From: a virus
Lineage: Duplodnaviria > Heunggongvirae > Uroviricota > Caudoviricetes
Strand: one strand, 5' to 3'
Virus record (IMG/VR): IMGVR_UViG_2778261691_000002
Span: 1-7,469 of that record
DNA length: 7,469 bases
How positions within the stretch are numbered: the first letter of the stretch is position 1; each line of letters starts with the position of its first letter. The notes under the pieces are model-generated. The model saw nothing but the letters and a program-made list of their open reading frames with translations, was not told the origin of the DNA and ran no database searches. Shown here piece after piece: positions 1 to 7,469 of the stretch. The position numbers were made by a program, and so were the translations under genes.

Positions 1-46
1 CTGTGTTCTGGTCATTTGTTGACACACGTACATAGCCAATAAGCAT
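1..46 (-). CDS. Serine DNA invertase (Gin/Cin/Pin/Hin family), N-terminal 15 codons only; gene continues beyond the left window edge
   Basis: Reverse complement of 1..46 reads atg ctt att ggc tat gta cgt gtg tca aca aat gac cag aac aca g = MLIGYVRVSTNDQNT, the N-terminus I recognise from Gin/Pin-type invertases, including the catalytic-serine motif YVRVST. SD-like GGGAG lies 7 nt upstream on the minus strand (revcomp of 54..58). Located 55 bp from a 26-bp crossover site. Gin, Cin and Pin cannot be told apart from 15 residues. Confidence 0.85.
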   Translation of the reverse strand, partial: MLIGYVRVSTNDQNT

Positions 47-72
47 GGTAGATCTCCCTGACAAAAGCAGGA

Positions 73-594
73 ATGATGCCATTTGCTCGTTATTTCTGCA
101 TTTTCATAAACGTTGGTTTGGGAGAAGGTTCTGCGTTGCCTGTTGGCGTACCAGTTCCTTGGCCTTCAGCTACGCCGCCGACAGGCTGGCTGAAATGCAA
201 CGGAGCAGCTTTTTCTGCTGAAGATTACCCTAATCTGGCAAAGGCTTACCCGACGTTAAAATTGCCTGATTTACGCGGTGAGTTTATTCGTGGCTGGGAT
301 GATGGAAAGGGAGTGGATAGTGGGCGAACTCTGCTTTCAGCACAAGGAGATGCTATCCGAAACATTACCGGGGTGGTTGGCTACAGTTCAATTGGCGATT
401 CACAAGGGTTATTAGGATACGTGTCAGGGGCCTTTTCGGCTTCGGAGTCAAAAGCTCCCGCATTAAGTGGTGCATCAGCATCCGGGTATCAACGCTCCCT
501 GTATGCGAATTTTAATGCTTCAGCCGTTGTCCCAACCGCAAATGAGAACCGCCCACGTAACATTGCCTTTAATTATATTGTGAGGGCTGCATAA
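73..594 (+). CDS. Alternative tail-fibre C-terminal cassette (Sv'-like, tail-collar domain), silent in this orientation; functional boundary is the crossover site at 113/114, not the ATG at 73
   Basis: Tail-collar-type motif PTGWLKCNGAAFSAEDYPNLAKAYPTLKLPDLRGEFIRGWDDG. The ORF begins only ~40 nt upstream of the crossover site and has no fibre N-terminal domain. Stop TAA at 592..594 overlaps the ATG of the downstream tfa (TAATG). Confidence 0.75.
   Translation: MMPFARYFCIFINVGLGEGSALPVGVPVPWPSATPPTGWLKCNGAAFSAEDYPNLAKAYPTLKLPDLRGEFIRGWDDGKGVDSGRTLLSAQGDAIRNITGVVGYSSIGDSQGLLGYVSGAFSASESKAPALSGASASGYQRSLYANFNASAVVPTANENRPRNIAFNYIVRAA
101..126. repeat. 26-bp invertase crossover site (gix/pix/hix-like), left copy
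   Basis: Plus strand ttttcataaacg|tt|ggtttgggagaa. The reverse complement of 1992..2017 is ctctcgaaaacc|tt|ggtttgggagaa: 21 of 26 positions identical, same central TT dinucleotide, imperfect dyad symmetry like hix (TTATCAAAAACC TT GGTTTTCAAGAA). Confidence 0.8.
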
Positions 595-1196
595 TGGATA
601 ACGCTGTATTAAATAGCGAGATTATTGCCACGAAGGCAGGGAATATTACCGTCTATAACTATGATGGTGAAACACGGGAATATATTTCCACTTCAAATGA
701 ATATCTTGCCGTTGGTGTTGGTATCCCGGCATATTCCTGTTTAGATTCACCAGGCACATATAAGGCTGGTTATGCTATCTGCCGTTCTGCAGATTTTAAC
801 TCATGGGAATATGTGCCAGACCATCGCGGTGAAATCGTCTATAACACCGAAACGGGAGAAGCCAAAGAAATCACAACTCCGGGTGATTACCCTGAAAATA
901 CAACCACTATCGCCCCGTTAACGCCATACGATAAATGGGATGGTGAGAAATGGGTGACCGATACTGAGGCACAGCACGGCGCAGCAGTAGATGCAGCAGA
1001 AGCACAGCGCCAGTCGCTGATTGATACTGCAATGGCCTCCATCAGTCTGATTCATCTGAAATTACAGGCCGGACGGAAGCTGACGCAGGCAGAAACCACC
1101 CGACTTAACGCTGTGCTGGATTACATTGACGCGGTGACGGCAACAGATACCAGCACCGCGCCGGATGTCATCTGGCCTGAACTGCCGGAGGCGTAG
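594..1196 (+). CDS. Tail fibre assembly chaperone (Tfa family), cognate to the silent fibre cassette
   Basis: 200 aa. C-terminal Tfa signature ...LNAVLDYIDAVTATDTSTAPDVIWPELP (compare lambda Tfa ...VDTSTAPDIEWP...). Start is translationally coupled to the upstream cassette. Length matches what I recall for e14 TfaE. Confidence 0.85.
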   Translation: MDNAVLNSEIIATKAGNITVYNYDGETREYISTSNEYLAVGVGIPAYSCLDSPGTYKAGYAICRSADFNSWEYVPDHRGEIVYNTETGEAKEITTPGDYPENTTTIAPLTPYDKWDGEKWVTDTEAQHGAAVDAAEAQRQSLIDTAMASISLIHLKLQAGRKLTQAETTRLNAVLDYIDAVTATDTSTAPDVIWPELPEA

Positions 1197-1611
1197 GCCA
1201 TTCAATATCTGGCGCCCCGGAAGTATCGACCAGTTCCAGTGCGTCCAGATAATCCAGCCACAAATTATATTGCGCCAGCTCGTCACCTTTCAGACGACCA
1301 ATAGCGGCTTTACCGGGCCATTGTTTACTGTTCATGTATTCGTTGGCCTGGTTAATTAGTAGCTGTCTTTCTGATTCAGTAATTTCAATAAGTTCTTCAT
1401 GCGTGGGTGGAGGAATATCTGCCCACGCAGGCAGCCCATCATCTCCGGCAATACGGATTTTTCCTTGTGGCGGTTCAGCCATAAACTCACTGATAATATT
1501 TTGATTTACTTCCTTAGCGTCTGATAAATCCCACCCCTCTGATTTATATTTATCAATCATATCCACAGGGAAAAAAGCATTATGCCTTGCGCTATAAACA
1601 TATTCGTTCAT
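1168..1611 (-). CDS. Tail fibre assembly chaperone (Tfa family), cognate to the currently expressed fibre
   Basis: C-terminal Tfa signature ...LWLDYLDALELVDTSGAPDIEWPTPP. I prefer the ATG at 1611..1609 (MNEYVYSA...), which has AGGGTGA 7-13 nt upstream, over the GTG at 1620 used by the ORF track. Sits directly downstream of the fibre gene. Confidence 0.8.
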   Translation of the reverse strand: MNEYVYSARHNAFFPVDMIDKYKSEGWDLSDAKEVNQNIISEFMAEPPQGKIRIAGDDGLPAWADIPPPTHEELIEITESERQLLINQANEYMNSKQWPGKAAIGRLKGDELAQYNLWLDYLDALELVDTSGAPDIEWPTPPAVQAR

Positions 1612-1631
1612 ATAAATCACCCTGAATAAAA

Positions 1632-2360
1632 TTACTCACCAACAGCCCACCAACTGTAATTCATCGATACCGTGTCGCTGGTTGATGACGTTCTGTAAGC
1701 AGAATTAAAACCGGTTAATGTTGGGCCTTCTGCGGTCATCACGAATCCCCGCCCAGCACCTAAAGGCGCACCACCATCACCAGAATGAGTAAGCATGGCG
1801 CAGTCCACTTTTTTAGGAAAAGGGATGCTGAATGTAATTCTCATTGTTTGCGTCGATAATGTCGGCGTAACCGCACCACGACCATATTGCAGGATTTTCC
1901 CGTTGGGTAATTTCATCCATCCATCACCACTGGCAAAAGAGGCCATGTCCGGTATCTGATTTTCCCCTGTTCCCACCCCCCGTTTCGCTGCTTCTCCCAA
2001 ACCAAGGTTTTCGAGAGCCGTTTTCACCGTGCCATCCGATTTGATATCACCAAACGGATTCTTGCGGCTCAGGTATTCAACAGCAAACCCCGATCCCAGC
2101 AATTCAACAAAACCGGGCAGATCACCATTATCAAGCACATCCCGTTGCGTTTTATCACTTACAAACTGGGCCAGAGCTGCAGCAATAAAGCTGGCCTGCC
2201 GAATAACCTTATTGACTTGCGCACTGGAGGCTTTCCCTGCTGTAAATCCGGATAAAAGCGCAGGCAACGCTTCCCATTCCTCCTGCGACATAACATTGGC
2301 ATTTTTACCCGTTGCGAATGCTTTAAAGTCATTTTTTGCCATCAGAGTAATACTCCCCAT
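1632..2360 (-). CDS. Tail fibre protein: constant N-terminal part (2360..2006) fused at the crossover site to a variable C-terminal receptor-binding part (1991..1632)
   Basis: Position at the end of the baseplate operon and followed by Tfa. The crossover site is in frame inside the ORF. An alternative start at ATG 2342..2340 (MAKNDF...) overlaps the upstream stop as TGATG and may be the true start. Short for a fibre (236-242 aa). Confidence 0.75.
1992..2017. repeat. 26-bp invertase crossover site, right copy, in inverted orientation relative to 101..126
   Basis: Plus strand ttctcccaaacc|aa|ggttttcgagag. Lies inside the minus-strand tail-fibre ORF, where it encodes ...ALENLGLGE... at the constant/variable junction. 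Confidence 0.8.
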
Positions 2361-3022
2361 GCCCCTACATCAAAACCACTGATAAATTCGTTATCCATAT
2401 CAAAACCAAAAAATTTTGAACCTTCCGATGGGGTTTCCACCGAAGGTGTTTCAATACCACCCGCCCACACCCCGGCGGCTTTTACTGTGAGATATCCCTG
2501 TTTAATTGCAGCAATTAACTCACGCGATACATCTGAAATATCAGTATCAGGAAAGACCCAGACCGATATCGTCATGTCCTGGTTATCGACAATCTGCATT
2601 CGCAGCCCGGATCCTGCTGTCGCCGTGTCAAGAATTGCTGGAAGCGAATCATTCCGTCCGTCCCAGTTATTAATCGCAATCTTCGCTTTAAGAATGACAC
2701 GATAAGTTTCATCGCTGAGATACATGTATCCTGAATCAGGATCGTATGGTCCCTGCCATACCCCCTGATCATATCCAAGCCCGTCGGTATCCCAGCTGAA
2801 ATAGACACCTGAGATAGGCTGGCTGACAACACGGCTACGTCCGATCCACAATCCAAGAATGTCAAGTTGCACACCAACCGCAGAGTCAATATCAAATGCA
2901 GTAATCAGCCCTCTGGTGGCAGCCGCAACATCAATAAGTGGCCGGGTCATCAGATCAACATGCGCAAGAAATTTAGGTTTGGTGGCGTGGTAGTTCGTGA
3001 TTAGTTCGGTGTATTTGCTCAT
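2342..3022 (-). CDS. Baseplate / tail-fibre-proximal protein (DUF2612-like; position equivalent to P2 gpI or Mu gp48)
   Basis: 226 aa. ATGA overlap with the upstream J-like gene at 3019..3022. Sits between the baseplate J-like gene and the tail fibre. Family assignment is by synteny and recollection, not a search. Confidence 0.6.
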
Positions 3023-4218
3023 GTCTCCACCGTTATAACGATATTTTCCGGGGTACAGGACGCAGATTCGTTGTATCTGATATCAATGTTTGATGACGAC
3101 AAAGCCCCCGGGGATTTCCCAATCGTCAGTTCCTGAATATCGTAATAGCGTGCATTCCCGCCACTCACCACGCCAAGATTCGCCGGTGAGTAAATGCGAC
3201 TTAAAAGGACCGAATCACCAATCATCAGACTATTGATATAGTCGGAAATAGCCTGCTGGATCTGCTGCCCTATCTGTGAGGTATAACCCGTAAAAACTTT
3301 TAATTTAATCCGGGCATAAACAGGTACATCACTGGAACGCGAAAATTTGATTACATGGGGATTGCCGTATTTATCCGGAACCGTAACGGATGTTGTACCG
3401 TGAGTGGCTGTTCCCTGGCCTTTATTCCCTCTGATAGCCTGAGCAATATCCGTCACATCACCGCCATCCACAATTACAGCAACAGAGTGTGGCGGTAACC
3501 CGTTACCGTCCTCCGAACCATTATCGTTTTCATAGAGTTTGTGGCGGGTTACACCGGTAACATTAGAAACAGCACCATTCAGTGCTTCAAATGGGGTTAT
3601 TGATGGTAACGCAACACTTTGCGACTGTCGGATACGTAACTCCGCATCAGTTTCTGCTGGAGTGCCTACAGTAGCTGCAGCAGGATTGGTTACCGAAACC
3701 CAGCCACGGGTTGGCGTATTAATTTCAGTGATAGTTCCAGCCAGCGCCGCCACTGCACCACTGACGGAACATGTTGCGGTCACCATCACTGTACCATCCA
3801 CGCCGACCACCACTGAAGCAGGCAAACGCCATATCACATTATTACTGTCTTTCACGCTGCCATTAATGATGGTTGTTCCGGCAGTTCCTGTAAGAAGCAA
3901 ATCAACCGTAGAATTCGTCGCGCCTTTACGTGAAATACCATTTATTTTCACGTTACTGGTCAGTGCAGCCCCATAGCCGGTTGCCGGTGAAAAACAGTTG
4001 TAGACAGTTATCGCCATATTATTGGCATCATGAATCGCCAGCGCCATCAGAGCCACCATCTGGCCGTCTTTGCTGTCCGGTTCGAGGTAGGCATCACTGC
4101 CATAAATCTGCTGAAAATAGCTAATCAGGGTGCTGAGTATCGTCTGATAATCAGGCGCACTGATCCCCTCCGCGGTTACCTTTGCAGATAAACCGAGAGA
4201 ATCAAGGTTCAGAGCCAT
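3019..4218 (-). CDS. Baseplate J-like protein (P2 gpJ / Mu gp47 / T4 gp6 family)
   Basis: 399 aa. TAATG stop/start overlap with the upstream W-like gene at 4216..4220. Position after the gp25/W-like gene. Gly/Thr/Val-rich beta-type composition typical of baseplate wedge proteins. Confidence 0.7.
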   Translation of the reverse strand: MALNLDSLGLSAKVTAEGISAPDYQTILSTLISYFQQIYGSDAYLEPDSKDGQMVALMALAIHDANNMAITVYNCFSPATGYGAALTSNVKINGISRKGATNSTVDLLLTGTAGTTIINGSVKDSNNVIWRLPASVVVGVDGTVMVTATCSVSGAVAALAGTITEINTPTRGWVSVTNPAAATVGTPAETDAELRIRQSQSVALPSITPFEALNGAVSNVTGVTRHKLYENDNGSEDGNGLPPHSVAVIVDGGDVTDIAQAIRGNKGQGTATHGTTSVTVPDKYGNPHVIKFSRSSDVPVYARIKLKVFTGYTSQIGQQIQQAISDYINSLMIGDSVLLSRIYSPANLGVVSGGNARYYDIQELTIGKSPGALSSSNIDIRYNESASCTPENIVITVET

Positions 4219-4571
4219 TACGCCTCCGATGTAACAGTCGTTATTCCATAAAGAGTGTCGATTTCAGCGGAAAACATGACACGTCGGGTCGTGGTATCCA
4301 CCGTCGTATTGAAAGAGAGGATTGATTTAACGCCCTGCGTTTCGAGGATGCGCTTACGGATCGCCAGGTTGTAGGTTTCCGGCTTCTGCTTACCGAGTAC
4401 GGACTGGATCCACGGAGTCCCCTCGGTGGTGTCGAGAAACCATTGCCCATACCACAATTCGAATCGCGTTTTTACCGCCTGCGCCACGGCCTCCGGTGAG
4501 TTAATCAGCCAGGTGTCATCACCGCTGCCAAAGGTGTAATCGCCATCGGCGTCTTCACGTCTGTATCGCAT
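4218..4571 (-). CDS. Baseplate protein, GPW/gp25-like (P2 gpW / Mu gp46 position)
   Basis: 117 aa, the typical size for this family. TGATG overlap with the upstream spike gene at 4569..4573. Synteny V-W-J. Confidence 0.6.
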   Translation of the reverse strand: MRYRREDADGDYTFGSGDDTWLINSPEAVAQAVKTRFELWYGQWFLDTTEGTPWIQSVLGKQKPETYNLAIRKRILETQGVKSILSFNTTVDTTTRRVMFSAEIDTLYGITTVTSEA

Positions 4572-5323
4572 CAGTTTACTCCGTCGGTATTGCTTCCACC
4601 GCGCTGAACACCACCATGAGTGTGCGTATCATCAATTGGCTTGCCGTTAGCCTTCACGCTACCCAAAAACTCAACAGCACCAGTGATTTTTGAAGCCACA
4701 CCAGAAACCACAGACCCCACCATGCCACCCATCCAGGTTAACAGGCCATGAATGGTTACTTTCTCAGAAAAATCAGCCAGAGGGGCAACCACATCAAGAC
4801 CACCCGGAGCGACAATTTTAATTTTCCTGGTATCAGGATTAAGCTCAAAATAGGTGCTGCCGTCATCACTACGCAACTGTGTGGCACTGGTATTAATACC
4901 GCTAATCTTCCTTGCCTGCGACTGGGGACCGACAATACAAAACGCATCCGATAAATCATGCATTCTGTCATCGACCGGCTCCTGTATCCCGCCGCTCTGC
5001 CACCAGAAATCAATACAACGATCGGCAAAAATCATCAAACATTCATCACCGGCTTTAACTGGGAACGTTAGCGTGCATCCTCCGCCGCGCGGGAATACCA
5101 CTGGCACATCCACCAGCAATGGGTAATTTTGGGTAATGCGGTTGCCGTCATTATCCTTTTCAACCGAACGGATAGCAGGCTGCACAACTGCCGTCACCGC
5201 ATCAGGATCGAATGACTGAATAATGCCAGGCAAGGCGACACGGATCTGGTTCTTTGTTGTTTCCCGTTCAGATTTGAATGTTTCGGCAAGGTCGCCGCTG
5301 CGGGTCTGGTCAGATACGGCCAT
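4571..5323 (-). CDS. Baseplate central spike / assembly protein V-like (P2 gpV / Mu gp45 position)
   Basis: 250 aa. ATG at 5323..5321 with GGAG about 10 nt upstream. C-terminal tip ...KPIDDTHTHGGVQRGG has an HxH motif like the metal-binding spike apex. First gene after the inserted cassette and terminator. Confidence 0.65.
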   Translation of the reverse strand: MAVSDQTRSGDLAETFKSERETTKNQIRVALPGIIQSFDPDAVTAVVQPAIRSVEKDNDGNRITQNYPLLVDVPVVFPRGGGCTLTFPVKAGDECLMIFADRCIDFWWQSGGIQEPVDDRMHDLSDAFCIVGPQSQARKISGINTSATQLRSDDGSTYFELNPDTRKIKIVAPGGLDVVAPLADFSEKVTIHGLLTWMGGMVGSVVSGVASKITGAVEFLGSVKANGKPIDDTHTHGGVQRGGSNTDGVN

Positions 5324-5342
5324 TTAGTAGGCTCCAGAAAGC

Positions 5343-5367
5343 AAAAAACCCGCCTGGTGGCGGGTTT
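5343..5367 (-). terminator. Rho-independent terminator for minus-strand transcription
   Basis: Minus-strand RNA: aaacccgcc-acca-ggcggguuuuuu. A GC-rich 6-9 bp stem (cccgcc/ggcggg at 5349..5354 and 5359..5364), 4-nt loop, then a U6 tract. Lies 18 nt downstream of the 57-aa ORF stop and ~20 nt upstream of the spike gene SD. Confidence 0.8.
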
Positions 5368-5384
5368 GATTTATAAGAACTTCA

Positions 5385-5558
5385 CTAACTATCTTTCTTG
5401 GGAAAAGTTGAAGGCTTGTCGTGATAGCTTTCCGTCATAATTTCGATATCCCCGAAAGGTACTCTAGCCATAATCTCTTGCTCATAGTTATCTAGGAAAG
5501 AGACCTCAGGCTCACTTGGTTTAGGTTGTGGTTCATTTTGGTCTTCTGGACAGGACAT
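5385..5558 (-). CDS. Hypothetical small acidic Pro/Glu-rich protein (57 aa), putative partner of the membrane protein
   Basis: Hand translation: MSCPEDQNEPQPKPSEPEVSFLDNYEQEIMARVPFGDIEIMTESYHDKPSTFPKKDS. The ATG at 5558 is 2 nt after the TGA of the upstream membrane gene (TGAatATG), with AAGG 7 nt upstream. Ends 18 nt before the terminator. Not in the ORF track (under 60 aa). No family recognised; could be non-coding. Confidence 0.4.
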   Translation of the reverse strand: MSCPEDQNEPQPKPSEPEVSFLDNYEQEIMARVPFGDIEIMTESYHDKPSTFPKKDS

Positions 5559-5560
5559 AT

Positions 5561-6091
5561 TCAAACCTTACTTATTAACATGCACGTTACAGAAATAATA
5601 AAAAATACAAATGACATAACCATCCATCGAAACAACTCATTTACAAACGCTGATTTTTCTTTATGGATTTTCTCGATTCTATCAATAGCCCTACCATACA
5701 TTATCAAATGAAATCTGACTGTGTCATCTCTACTACCCCTCAGAAGAAATTCATGTTGTTCAGGTGTTCGATGCACAGGCATTTTGGGAATATTTCTAAG
5801 TTCCCAACATTTCCATAAATAATAAAAACAAAAAACCAAACATACAAAACATGAACATAGACACAATAGAGACAATCTTGCGGATAGACTAGTCTTTAAC
5901 TGTTGTCCCAGCTCAAAGGACCCAAAAACGGCTAATAATGCAGAAATCTCAACACCAAGCACAGCAAGAAGAAAATTAGCTTTGTCCTCTAACCGCCTGT
6001 ATGTTGTCTTAACTTCTTCATACCTGTCTCTCGAGTACGACAAAATCGTATCTACTTCAAGGCCAACAGCCTCATTCCTTTGATTGCACAT
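5561..6091 (-). CDS. Hypothetical three-TM membrane protein (176 aa) encoded in an AT-rich insert; no family recognised
   Basis: ATG at 6091..6089. Charged N-terminal ~40 aa, then hydrophobic segments FLLAVLGVEISALLAVFGSF, LSLLCLCSCFVCLVFCFYYLW and WMVMSFVFFIISVTCMLI, with a charged ~60-aa loop between the second and third. An open frame of 176 codons in roughly 36% GC DNA is unlikely by chance. Begins 6 nt after the stop of the signal-peptide gene. Confidence 0.6.
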   Translation of the reverse strand: MCNQRNEAVGLEVDTILSYSRDRYEEVKTTYRRLEDKANFLLAVLGVEISALLAVFGSFELGQQLKTSLSARLSLLCLCSCFVCLVFCFYYLWKCWELRNIPKMPVHRTPEQHEFLLRGSRDDTVRFHLIMYGRAIDRIEKIHKEKSAFVNELFRWMVMSFVFFIISVTCMLISKV

Positions 6092-6097
6092 ATTGTA

Positions 6098-6451
6098 TTA
6101 ATCGTCAACCTTCTTACAAGGAAACGAACCTATGATTCTCGGCGCATCCATGCTGTTCTGCAGTAGTTGGACATTCAAGAAACGCGTTTCGGTACCCGGA
6201 CGGCGAATGAACTCGAAACCGTAATTGTTACCGTCTTTGGCTGGCATAAGCCCCATATCCGCCTTCATTCCATTACCGTTGCCGAGCGTTTTGATTTTCT
6301 GGGAGGTAACTGTCTCACCATTAATCCTGAACAATGAATCAGGAATCAACTCTAATTTGTAGCCACCACACTGAAGCGTGACACCGCCAGGATTCGCAGC
6401 AAATGCGAACCCCGGAAGGAAACAGAGTCCAATAACAATCCACTTTTTCAC
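6098..6451 (-). CDS. Hypothetical secreted/periplasmic protein with Sec signal peptide (117 aa)
   Basis: N-terminus MKKWIVIGLCFLPGFAFA|ANPGG is a classic signal peptide with an AFA-A signal peptidase I site and no lipobox. GTG start at 6451..6449 shares one base with the TAG of the upstream gene (taGTG), with GAGG upstream. Two Cys in the mature part (possible disulfide). Normal GC (~47%). Confidence 0.65.
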   Translation of the reverse strand: MKKWIVIGLCFLPGFAFAANPGGVTLQCGGYKLELIPDSLFRINGETVTSQKIKTLGNGNGMKADMGLMPAKDGNNYGFEFIRRPGTETRFLNVQLLQNSMDAPRIIGSFPCKKVDD

Positions 6452-7469
6452 TATCCTACCTCACGCTGTAAAGACGACGCCGAACGAAGATCCGCCGCAC
6501 CGCGCGCTTCGCACATCATATCCATGTACCACGCCTGGCCCCTTGTGTCGCCAGTGTACATAATCCCGCGCACAATATAAACGCCATCCGTTGCGATGCT
6601 GGCAGGCTGCGATATGGTGCCGCTTAGCGTAATATTTCCGTCCGTGTTCTGGTCGGTGATCTGCCCACCAGCCATAGCGATATCGTTGTTCGACAACGCG
6701 GTGCGATATACGGAAGCCTGATCCAGTTGAATGAGCCCATTAACCCGGATGTTCGGATTAATAAGCGCGCGGACGTTTACGCCGTTGCCGATGGTCTGCT
6801 GCGGCATGCCAATAAGCCCGGTAGCGCTGTTGAGCACAATCGCTTCGTGAACATATTCATTATTCACCACCATCTGGCGCTGACCATCCACGAATTGCCA
6901 TGTTGCGCCACATTGCCCGGCTACGTTATCCATTAGATGCCGCGTCATGCCAAAGAGCACCCGCCCCCGGGGGAATACAGTAGCAGGCATTTCAGGCGTC
7001 AGGCCTTCGGTCGCACCTTTGGCTTCGAAGTCTTTCATCAGCGCACGGTTCACATCAGCGACCGTGTAACCGGCAGCCAGCGTCTGTGAGGTTATACTGG
7101 TGGCAAAAGCCAGATCAGTATCTGCTGCCTGAATCAGGACGTAGGAATCAACCGGACTGTCTTTTCCTGTGACCGAGTAGCGAATTTCACCGCTGAAAAT
7201 CAGTCCGTAGTTGCGGCCATCTCTCTGGCCCACATCTGCCGCGTCGACTTCGCGCACGGTCCCGACGTCGCTTGCCGCCACCTCCGGCGCGATACCGTCG
7301 TAACCGGCAATCAGCCGCACTTTCGAAAATTCCTTCCCGGTGATTCGGTTCACAGTATCTGCCGAGAGGTTATAAATTTTGATAGTCCCTACCCGGGACG
7401 CGCTGCTGATGTTGAACCAGTCGATCGTAAAGGTGACTTTGAAATCACTTAGCTCAATTCCCTGACCGT
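6451..7469 (-). CDS. Phage tail/baseplate structural protein, 5'-truncated by the window edge (possibly baseplate hub, Mu gp44 / P2 gpD position)
   Basis: The frame stays open from the annotated GTG at 7353 up to position 7469 (hand-translated upstream codons ...GQGIELSDFKVTFTIDWFNISSASRVGTIKIYNLSADT-V-NRITGKEF...), so the real start is outside the window. Gly/Thr/Asn/Val-rich composition. The hub assignment is from synteny only. Confidence 0.5.
   Translation of the reverse strand, partial: GQGIELSDFKVTFTIDWFNISSASRVGTIKIYNLSADTVNRITGKEFSKVRLIAGYDGIAPEVAASDVGTVREVDAADVGQRDGRNYGLIFSGEIRYSVTGKDSPVDSYVLIQAADTDLAFATSITSQTLAAGYTVADVNRALMKDFEAKGATEGLTPEMPATVFPRGRVLFGMTRHLMDNVAGQCGATWQFVDGQRQMVVNNEYVHEAIVLNSATGLIGMPQQTIGNGVNVRALINPNIRVNGLIQLDQASVYRTALSNNDIAMAGGQITDQNTDGNITLSGTISQPASIATDGVYIVRGIMYTGDTRGQAWYMDMMCEARGAADLRSASSLQREVG

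Follow-up and report, generated by a model that had tools for sequence, protein, structure and literature searches.

The DNA analyzed here, hereafter the window, is a stretch of 7,469 nucleotides (positions 1 to 7,469 of IMG/VR virus record IMGVR_UViG_2778261691_000002, assigned to the Caudoviricetes), and this study concerns the 117-residue open reading frame (ORF) at 6098-6451 on its minus strand, which we call X. X lies between the genes for the baseplate hub and the baseplate spike, and we are confident that its product is an exported, non-structural accessory protein. The explanation that we find best overall, at slightly below an even chance, is that this exported accessory protein heads an island of cargo genes and acts as an exclusion-type binder in the periplasm; the exclusion-type function, taken by itself, is proposed tentatively. 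The features on which the argument first depends are as follows.

6098-6451, minus strand: gene X, encoding the 117-residue precursor of a putative exported small beta-barrel protein (PHROG 3443), with a GTG start at 6451-6449 and a TAA stop at 6100-6098.
6459-6462, minus strand: GAGG Shine-Dalgarno sequence of X, read from the sequence, within the final hub codons and 7 nucleotides 5' of the GTG.
6398-6451, minus strand: Sec signal peptide of the signal peptidase I type, MKKWIVIGLCFLPGFAFA (codons 1-18), with n, h and c regions read from the sequence and predicted cleavage after AFA.
6101-6397, minus strand: mature domain of 99 residues, in which the beta1-beta2 hairpin (residues 19-42) is variable and the core (residues 43-115) highly conserved.
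6451-7469, minus strand: the 3' 339 codons of the baseplate hub gene (E217 gp41-like), matched by PHROG 196 'baseplate hub' with an expectation value (E) of 3e-67 and weakly by Pfam E217_GP41.

We take X to be a real gene on the basis of its 389 homologues, all of about 107-119 residues and from Enterobacterales, its match to PHROG 3443, a family of unknown function (E = 1e-46, residues 9-116 on profile positions 6-114 of 115), and the ratio of nonsynonymous to synonymous substitution rates (dN/dS), which is 0.81 in the signal segment, 0.31 in the beta1-beta2 hairpin and 0.09 over core residues 43-115. Its fixed genomic position in relatives is likewise beyond chance occurrence. The minus strand at the hub/X junction reads GAG GTA GGA TAG TG AAA AAG TGG, and base 6451 is common to the hub stop TAG (6453-6451) and the X start GTG (6451-6449). 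The first-pass annotation of this DNA had noticed the shared base, now confirmed, and had proposed translational coupling into the tail operon, and the TAGTG overlap supports a coupling of X to the hub gene. It had also placed an AT-rich cassette directly downstream and a membrane-protein gene 6 nucleotides past X, and both are borne out: 5385-6091 is AT-rich, with G+C fractions of 0.36 and 0.41 in its 176-residue and 59-residue genes, and the ATG of the 176-residue ORF, which encodes three predicted transmembrane segments, lies at 6091, 6 nucleotides past the X stop TAA (6100-6098). The base composition of X (0.47) is not unlike that of the neighboring tail genes (0.49-0.55; hub 0.55), and a deviant G+C fraction is found in the cargo only.

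The N-terminus of X, MKKWIVIGLCFLPGFAFA followed by ANPGG, contains two lysines, a 12-residue hydrophobic core and alanine at -3 and -1. The signal peptide was called from rule-based features, namely positive charge in the n-region, a hydrophobic stretch of 7-15 residues as the h-region and small side chains at positions -3 and -1, together with conservation in the family; the sequence of X has these Sec/signal peptidase I features in KK, WIVIGLCFLPGF and A-F-A followed by A. K or R is present in the n-region of 104 of 118 relatives and an acidic residue is absent there in 117 of them, and the best 10-residue hydropathy of their N-termini has a mean of 2.6. In 101 of 103 family members a small-x-small motif closely precedes the first cysteine, and it appears across the X alleles as AFA, AWA, AMA, ASA or VMA, a few residues ahead of that cysteine. 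The N-terminal 18-25 residues are nearly wholly different between alleles, with one or two K/R and the hydrophobic core retained. This is in agreement with the first-pass annotation, which had read a Sec signal peptide with cleavage after AFA: the n/h/c features are canonical, and they are conserved in the family though the sequence drifts. The lipobox [LVI][ASTVI][GAS]C is absent from X, whose C10 follows I-G-L and is not conserved, and a reading of X as a lipoprotein processed by signal peptidase II was dropped for lack of this motif. A lipobox occurs in only two related or slot genes, the 292-residue variant P0141 (LSGC) and the replacement gene of locus L117 (LTSC). Relatives of X have been annotated independently as 'Secreted protein' and 'putative exported protein'. 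Judged from these N-terminal features, X is almost certainly exported to the periplasm.

The mature domain is modeled by AlphaFold2, from a 42-sequence alignment, as seven strands in up-and-down order, with a predicted local distance difference test score (pLDDT) of about 90 over residues 21-110 and below 50 over the signal peptide. Cys28 (6368-6370) is on the first strand and Cys112 (6116-6118) on the last; both are invariant and are kept in the most distant relatives too. Since the first and last strands are adjacent in an up-and-down barrel, a Cys28-Cys112 disulfide closing the barrel is likely from the modeled topology, and the conserved cysteine pair suits a periplasmic protein. The family appears narrow, as a profile search of 1.84 billion representatives returned 41 clusters. 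X has no Pfam or NCBIfam family match (Pfam scan at E up to 0.1, MliC, Ivy and other lysozyme-inhibitor families included) and no PADLOC model match at E up to 1, and no known superinfection-exclusion or anti-phage defense family in Pfam or PADLOC gave a profile match. A profile search against the PDB sequences gave no match, and Foldseek with the model gave no match of E < 0.1 in the PDB or of E < 0.001 in BFVD. The top fold matches were bacterial avidins and lipocalin-like barrels, and designed and outer-membrane barrels scored comparably to or above MliC/PliC. One X allele is labeled 'STY1065/STY2022 family phage-derived protein' by the Prokaryotic Genome Annotation Pipeline, with no function attached, and a literature search found no paper discussing the gene.

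Among the relatives, P0143 has about 32% identity to the window protein, and P0141 is a 292-residue lipoprotein variant in the X slot, with a C-terminal X domain of about 43% identity. The homologue in Salmonella phage SEN34 is annotated from an internal ATG (SEN34_20, L001 4109-4342, 77 residues); the full frame has 113 residues with a signal peptide and aligns to residues 1-117 of the window protein. The distant homologue P0159 (118 residues, with a signal peptide and both cysteines) is encoded on a metagenome contig (L131 5001-5357, ENA ERZ27284868), where its neighbors, clsA/yciY on one side and yciI on the other, are chromosomal and not phage genes; it may be a host-derived relative of the X family.

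X is immediately 3' of the hub gene in SEN34, Klebsiella phage Mulock, Yersinia phage YP3 and E. coli prophages, and the distant relatives P0143, P0141 and P0142 are likewise directly behind a hub gene. A further 80 loci were retrieved via the hub protein alone, which leaves this sample unbiased towards X, and 75 of them include the spike gene. X is first after the hub stop in 71 of the 75; the four exceptions have an unrelated signal-peptide protein, F12, in three loci and a lipoprotein, F39 (lipobox LTSC), in one. In the 41 loci with both junctions mapped, the X start candidates are nearly always within about 15 nucleotides of the hub stop, the exceptions being L016, in which a tandem array puts the X copy 1.9 kb downstream, and L043, which holds an X remnant only. 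Hafnia phage yong1, whose hub is 77% identical, has an F12-type exported protein followed by a remnant consisting of the last 17 X codons, and the spike gene of Providencia phage PSTCR3 overlaps its hub gene, with nothing in between. Burkholderia phage BgManors32 and Elizabethkingia phage EKP1 each have a different signal-peptide protein at this junction. The annotated start of yong1 gp67 (L124 4018-4543) is too far downstream; the ORF runs from a GTG just past the hub stop and encodes the signal peptide MNKRTVFLILSLFVPIAVMA followed by APGK.

X is therefore not present in every phage with this baseplate type: yong1 retains a remnant, PSTCR3 lacks it, and another gene takes its place in 4 of the 75 loci. 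Because these phages and loci do without it, we regard X as accessory rather than structural and, on this comparative evidence, as dispensable for assembling this type of baseplate. The hub-spike slot seems to favor exported proteins. Scans of Pfam, NCBIfam and the structural PHROGs gave no match of X to baseplate or tail families, and a literature search found no virion proteomic data for SEN34-like phages. The E217 baseplate cap has been described as composed of gp36, gp37/38, the hub gp41 and the tip gp43, and 'gp42' does not occur in the main text of that paper (PMC10329688). The first-pass annotation had suggested a non-virion, periplasmic accessory protein and had proposed to look for the gene at the same position in homologous prophages, where 71 of the 75 hub-retrieved loci have it; the lack of a baseplate-family match and the absence or replacement of X in related phages argue for that suggestion.

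Behind X, the island continues to the spike gene with the following features.

5561-6091, minus strand: cargo gene 1, encoding a 176-residue protein with three predicted transmembrane segments (PHROG 18554); AT-rich and with no Shine-Dalgarno sequence of its own.
5385-5564, minus strand: cargo gene 2, encoding a 59-residue acidic protein (PHROG 18231, family F08), with a 4-nucleotide overlap with the stop of the 176-residue gene.
5338-5367, minus strand: intrinsic terminator AAACCCGCC-ACCA-GGCGGGTTT then TTTGCTTTCT, found by a terminator scan; a 9-bp G+C-rich hairpin followed by a T-run.
4571-5323, minus strand: baseplate spike gene, with the N-terminal domain of the membrane-puncturing spike family (Pfam PF18352, E = 2e-44) and a gpV Apex motif (PF18946), in keeping with its RefSeq annotation.

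The terminator is immediately 5' of the spike Shine-Dalgarno sequence (GGAG, 5332-5335) and forms the right border of the variable island, with the spike gene as the conserved right flank. Similarity between loci ends abruptly just upstream of it, and the hairpin stands at the equal place in 65 of 68 distinct upstream sequences, whatever the cargo; it is not recognizable in L003, L078 and L096. Across genera the stem varies as CCCGCC/GGCGGG, CCTGC/GCAGG, GCCGC/GCGGC and GGCCGC/GTGGCC, with double compensatory changes in 4 of 7 pairs. The left border of the exchangeable unit is inside the hub gene, past a conserved CEARGAxDL motif (6451-6490 on the minus strand of the window, about 100 loci). 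The last 10-13 hub residues, the X signal peptide and the beta1-beta2 hairpin vary together as discrete types, with the rest of X nearly constant between types, and because the polymorphic hub residues match the X allele one-for-one, we place the left recombination border within the hub gene. The island thus appears to begin about a dozen codons before the end of the hub gene and to close with the conserved terminator ahead of the spike.

In 109 loci, the ORFs of 35 codons or more that lie between X and the spike fall into 39 clusters, several of which are short ORFs and maybe not genes. The commonest cargo, in 39 loci, is a pair of a 243-residue protein and a HEPN-like 142-residue protein. 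Other cargos are a DUF4282 two-helix membrane protein, a YafO toxin module, a DUF2335 membrane protein, an exported OB-fold protein and, in L027, PD-Lambda-1 (E = 1e-82); most cargo families have no annotation, and several further exported proteins are among them. The 176-residue protein shows only a weak similarity to PycTM (Pycsar effector; E = 2.6e-4). Its family, F07, is present in 10 of the 109 loci, combined with two different X alleles and always with a small acidic partner, which is F08 in 8 loci and F19 in 2; F08 is always behind F07. In all 10 loci the 176-residue gene starts -1 to +7 nucleotides from the X stop with no Shine-Dalgarno sequence, so that the 176-residue and 59-residue genes of the window are probably co-transcribed with X. 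The identical 176-residue and 59-residue cassette is left unannotated by RefSeq in E. coli genomes (L004 8311-9014, L005 8429-9132). The lysogens ECONIH2 and MS20659 have this cargo too, with an X identical or 99% identical to that of the window. X alleles were typed by the residues flanking the first cysteine, which gave at least 13 types, and they combine freely with cargo families and with spike clusters. The window-type allele was seen with at least 9 different cargos, and we dropped the idea that X co-evolves with the spike or the cargo. Taken together, the gene arrangements indicate that X is the constant head gene and the 176-residue/59-residue pair one interchangeable cargo, and that the hub-spike junction can be considered a cargo/defense hotspot of SEN34-like prophages. 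A literature search found no description of this accessory-gene slot.

The position of the terminator bears on the expression of X. Late transcription must read through it, and its presence before the spike gene implies that some transcription enters from upstream without late antitermination or activation, to be stopped there. Because several cargos, including that of the window, leave no space for a promoter, this transcription probably begins in or before X, and X is probably also transcribed in the lysogen. The coupling to the hub gene implies in addition that X is made at least late in infection. A consensus promoter scan gave 3 sites compared with 2.6 expected from shuffled sequence, none of them convincing upstream of X. 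A promoter ahead of X or of the 176-residue gene was considered and dropped; the only nearby match, at 6119-6092, abuts the 176-residue gene, its last base being the one directly before the ATG.

A single locus, L016 of Pseudescherichia vulneris (NZ_BBMZ01000043.1, 1-2919), contains four divergent X paralogues in tandem, at 629-1003, 1274-1594, 1889-2242 and 2496-2849. In front of the second, third and fourth of these, about 65 codons from the end of the hub gene are repeated, and the last paralogue is directly before the terminator, 69 nucleotides from the spike gene. Tandem Repeats Finder did not detect the array, the copies being too divergent, and an array of this type was found in 1 of 133 loci. 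This one case suggests that it can be useful to carry several X specificities. One could speculate, as an improbable refinement of the exclusion reading, that X is a polymorphic periplasmic protein for self-recognition and exclusion, with a hypervariable hairpin matched to the equally polymorphic C-terminal tail of the hub encoded just 5' of it. The two would always move as one cassette, and X would capture, in the periplasm, the hub-spike tip of incoming phages of its own type. If so, the baseplate operon would contain a type-specific 'kin exclusion' system, and a stack of modules of hub 3' end plus X, like that of L016, would let more types be excluded, much as orphan immunity arrays do.

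For the function of X we propose the following working model. The precursor would be exported by the Sec pathway and cut after AFA by signal peptidase I, and the 99-residue product would fold in the periplasm into an up-and-down beta-barrel, in which a Cys28-Cys112 disulfide probably staples the first to the last strand. X would stay outside the virion, its gene being the near-constant first gene of the island between hub and spike in SEN34/Brunovirus-like prophages of Enterobacterales. As a periplasmic binder it might then block a periplasmic infection step of incoming related phages, resulting in superinfection exclusion or in protection of the progeny from wasteful re-injection, with the conserved core holding a conserved target and the polymorphic beta1-beta2 hairpin giving type specificity. 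Superinfection exclusion appears to be the most plausible role, considering the location of X, the precedent of Sp, Cor, Llp, HK97 gp15 and Ltp, the company of defense genes, the combination of a conserved core with a polymorphic hairpin, and the replacement of X by other exported proteins. Masking of a receptor is less likely, because the X core is highly conserved across genera and the tail fibers in these loci are variable and invertible.

Several points weigh against the exclusion function. No lysogenic promoter was identified, the promoter scan being no richer than shuffled sequence, and X, closely coupled as it is to a late structural gene, looks more like a gene expressed late than like the classical exclusion genes, which are expressed from prophages. 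Near-universal presence and strong conservation are also unusual for exclusion morons, which are usually sporadic. In addition, most of the sampled loci come from close E. coli relatives, with hubs at least 96% identical, and the cysteine pairing is read from strand topology.

It could be proposed instead that X is a virion or assembly component whose hydrophobic N-terminus, instead of being a cleaved signal peptide, inserts into the membrane at the hub during assembly or DNA delivery. Its location, flanked by core baseplate genes on both sides and coupled to the hub stop, its occurrence in nearly all hub-retrieved loci (71 of 75) and the strong purifying selection on its core would be expected of such a protein. 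However, every allele keeps canonical n, h and c regions and an A-x-A site, the invariant cysteine pair suits an oxidizing compartment, yong1 and PSTCR3 have no X, and unrelated exported proteins or a lipoprotein take its place elsewhere. The solved E217 baseplate cap, moreover, consists of hub and spike with no extra small subunit described (PMC10329688), and we consider a virion role very improbable. We give still less credence to the three-gene envelope module of X, the 176-residue membrane protein and the 59-residue protein that the first-pass annotation had put forward. The tight packing of the three ORFs (a 6-nucleotide gap and a 4-nucleotide overlap), the single terminator at their end and the constant placement of the 176-residue gene at -1 to +7 nucleotides from the X stop are what a dedicated module would show, but the 176-residue family follows X in only 10 of 109 loci and does so with two X alleles, its small partner varies (F08 in 8 loci, F19 in 2), and the X allele of the window also occurs with at least 9 other cargos. 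The G+C fractions (0.47 for X, 0.36 and 0.41 for the cargo) also speak against a module. Given this free assortment, the proposed link holds at the operon level only.

Two further readings accept an exported X and give it another task. X may be a ligand-binding or host-fitness moron of the periplasm, comparable with Bor and Lom and without a role in phage-phage conflict, in which case an avidin- or lipocalin-like barrel might bind a small molecule or a component of the host envelope. The best fold matches are indeed bacterial avidins and lipocalin-like barrels, and a distant homologue stands on one enterobacterial contig in a non-phage chromosomal position between clsA/yciY and yciI. That homologue aside, though, all contexts with enough flanking sequence and all loci retrieved with X represent one phage tail-module slot; X shows no avidin or lipocalin family signature in Pfam, translational coupling to a late gene would be odd for such a factor, and lost copies are replaced by other exported proteins in exactly that slot, which together make this reading unlikely. 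The other reading takes X as a periplasmic inhibitor of, or immunity protein against, cell-wall hydrolases, like MliC/PliC or the orphan immunity proteins of type VI secretion, so that the lysogen or infected cell would be protected against lysozymes, lytic transglycosylases (the SLT domain of an incoming tape measure, for example) or the effectors of competitors. X is, like MliC/PliC, predicted to be an exported small beta-barrel with a cysteine pair, tape-measure genes near X often bear an SLT domain, and the polymorphism of X and the L016 stack resemble arrays of immunity genes. Yet the fold match is generic, since avidins, designed barrels and outer-membrane barrels score equally or higher, and no Pfam match to MliC, Ivy or another inhibitor was obtained at E up to 0.1. 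The tape measures beside X have no SLT match in L004, a near-twin of the window, and in L007, and an effector gene was not seen next to the homologue in any of six contexts, whether these were looked up or came from a sequence search. We judge an inhibitor or immunity function to be rather improbable. A narrower candidate, X as the partner of an SLT-type tape measure, was dropped, as X also occurs beside tape measures without an SLT match.

The rest of the window fits a contractile-tail baseplate operon, with all long ORFs from 7469 to about 1170 on the minus strand. The order of transcription is hub, X, the 176-residue and 59-residue genes, spike, a sheath-initiator-like wedge protein, baseplate J and a DUF2612 wedge protein, and the operon ends with a tail fiber and its assembly protein, followed by an invertible alternative fiber end on the plus strand. 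The hub ORF is open at the end of the window, with no upstream stop, and its full-length homologues in E. coli prophages have 355 residues. Matches to the window were found in E. coli prophages beside pinE, and its phage relatives are Salmonella phage SEN34 (Brunovirus), Klebsiella phage Mulock and Yersinia phage YP3. The invertible tail-fiber segment (73-1620) has a plus-strand alternative fiber C-terminus and assembly gene (73-594 and 594-1196) facing the minus-strand fiber and assembly genes (1168-2360), and in matching E. coli genomes pinE is just past the left end of the window.

We regard X as a new, uncharacterized member of the exported phage morons, a familiar group. It was found in 279 of 5,426 complete E. 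coli genomes, about 5%, and also in many prophages of Klebsiella, Salmonella, Photorhabdus, Pantoea and Yersinia. The slot that it heads is previously undescribed and easily recognized by its order of hub 3' end, X, cargo, conserved terminator and spike, and as it holds defense genes, toxin-antitoxin pairs and uncharacterized membrane or exported proteins, it can be mined for new anti-phage and exclusion functions. Should X be an exclusion factor, the short list of exclusion proteins that are mechanistically understood would gain a periplasmic beta-barrel type; if X is not one, it would be an ordinary conserved hypothetical phage gene.

Among the known systems, Spackle (Sp) of phage T4 is a small, all-helical superinfection-exclusion protein of the periplasm, which has a Sec signal, is encoded by an early gene and targets the gp5 lysozyme. 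X resembles it as a small phage protein with a Sec signal peptide, and action in the periplasm on the incoming tail tip is the working model for X; it differs in being a predicted beta-barrel coupled to a late gene, with no sequence or fold match to Sp. Cor of phages phi80, HK022 and N15 and Llp of T5 are exclusion lipoproteins encoded beside tail or receptor-binding genes, and they mask the FhuA receptor. Like them, X is an envelope-targeted accessory protein encoded in or beside a tail cluster and placed outside the virion, but it has no lipobox (the 292-residue variant excepted) and is conserved across hosts whose phages have differing tail fibers. Compared with the lysozyme inhibitors MliC/PliC, X has no Pfam match, and unrelated barrels score equally or better.

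The lambdoid morons, such as HK97 gp15, lambda lom and bor, are extra genes between essential late genes that are closed by a terminator, read through late, and present or absent among close relatives; this picture reportedly comes from Juhala, Hendrix and from Cumby and co-workers. A terminator within a late operon is a hallmark of these morons, and X shares with them the intrinsic terminator inside the operon behind its island. It differs from them in its tail-operon base composition, the lack of an identifiable promoter of its own, its near-universal presence in the lineage and its fixed place at the head of a cargo slot. Rhs and contact-dependent inhibition (CDI) loci carry orphan arrays of toxin-immunity genes, and the L016 array is like these in its stacked divergent copies, each after the first with a 3' fragment of the upstream conserved gene; the hub, however, is not known to carry a toxin, and the likeness, which concerns architecture only, is seen in 1 of 133 loci. 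P2-like prophages and P4 satellites are said, by Rousset and colleagues in 2022, to have defense hotspots. The X island is similar to them in being a fixed site between conserved phage genes at which defense and toxin-antitoxin cassettes (PD-Lambda-1, the YafO module and the HEPN-like pair) are exchanged, whereas it belongs to another phage lineage, lies at the hub/spike junction, and is distinguished by a constant head gene for an exported protein and a conserved terminator at its end.

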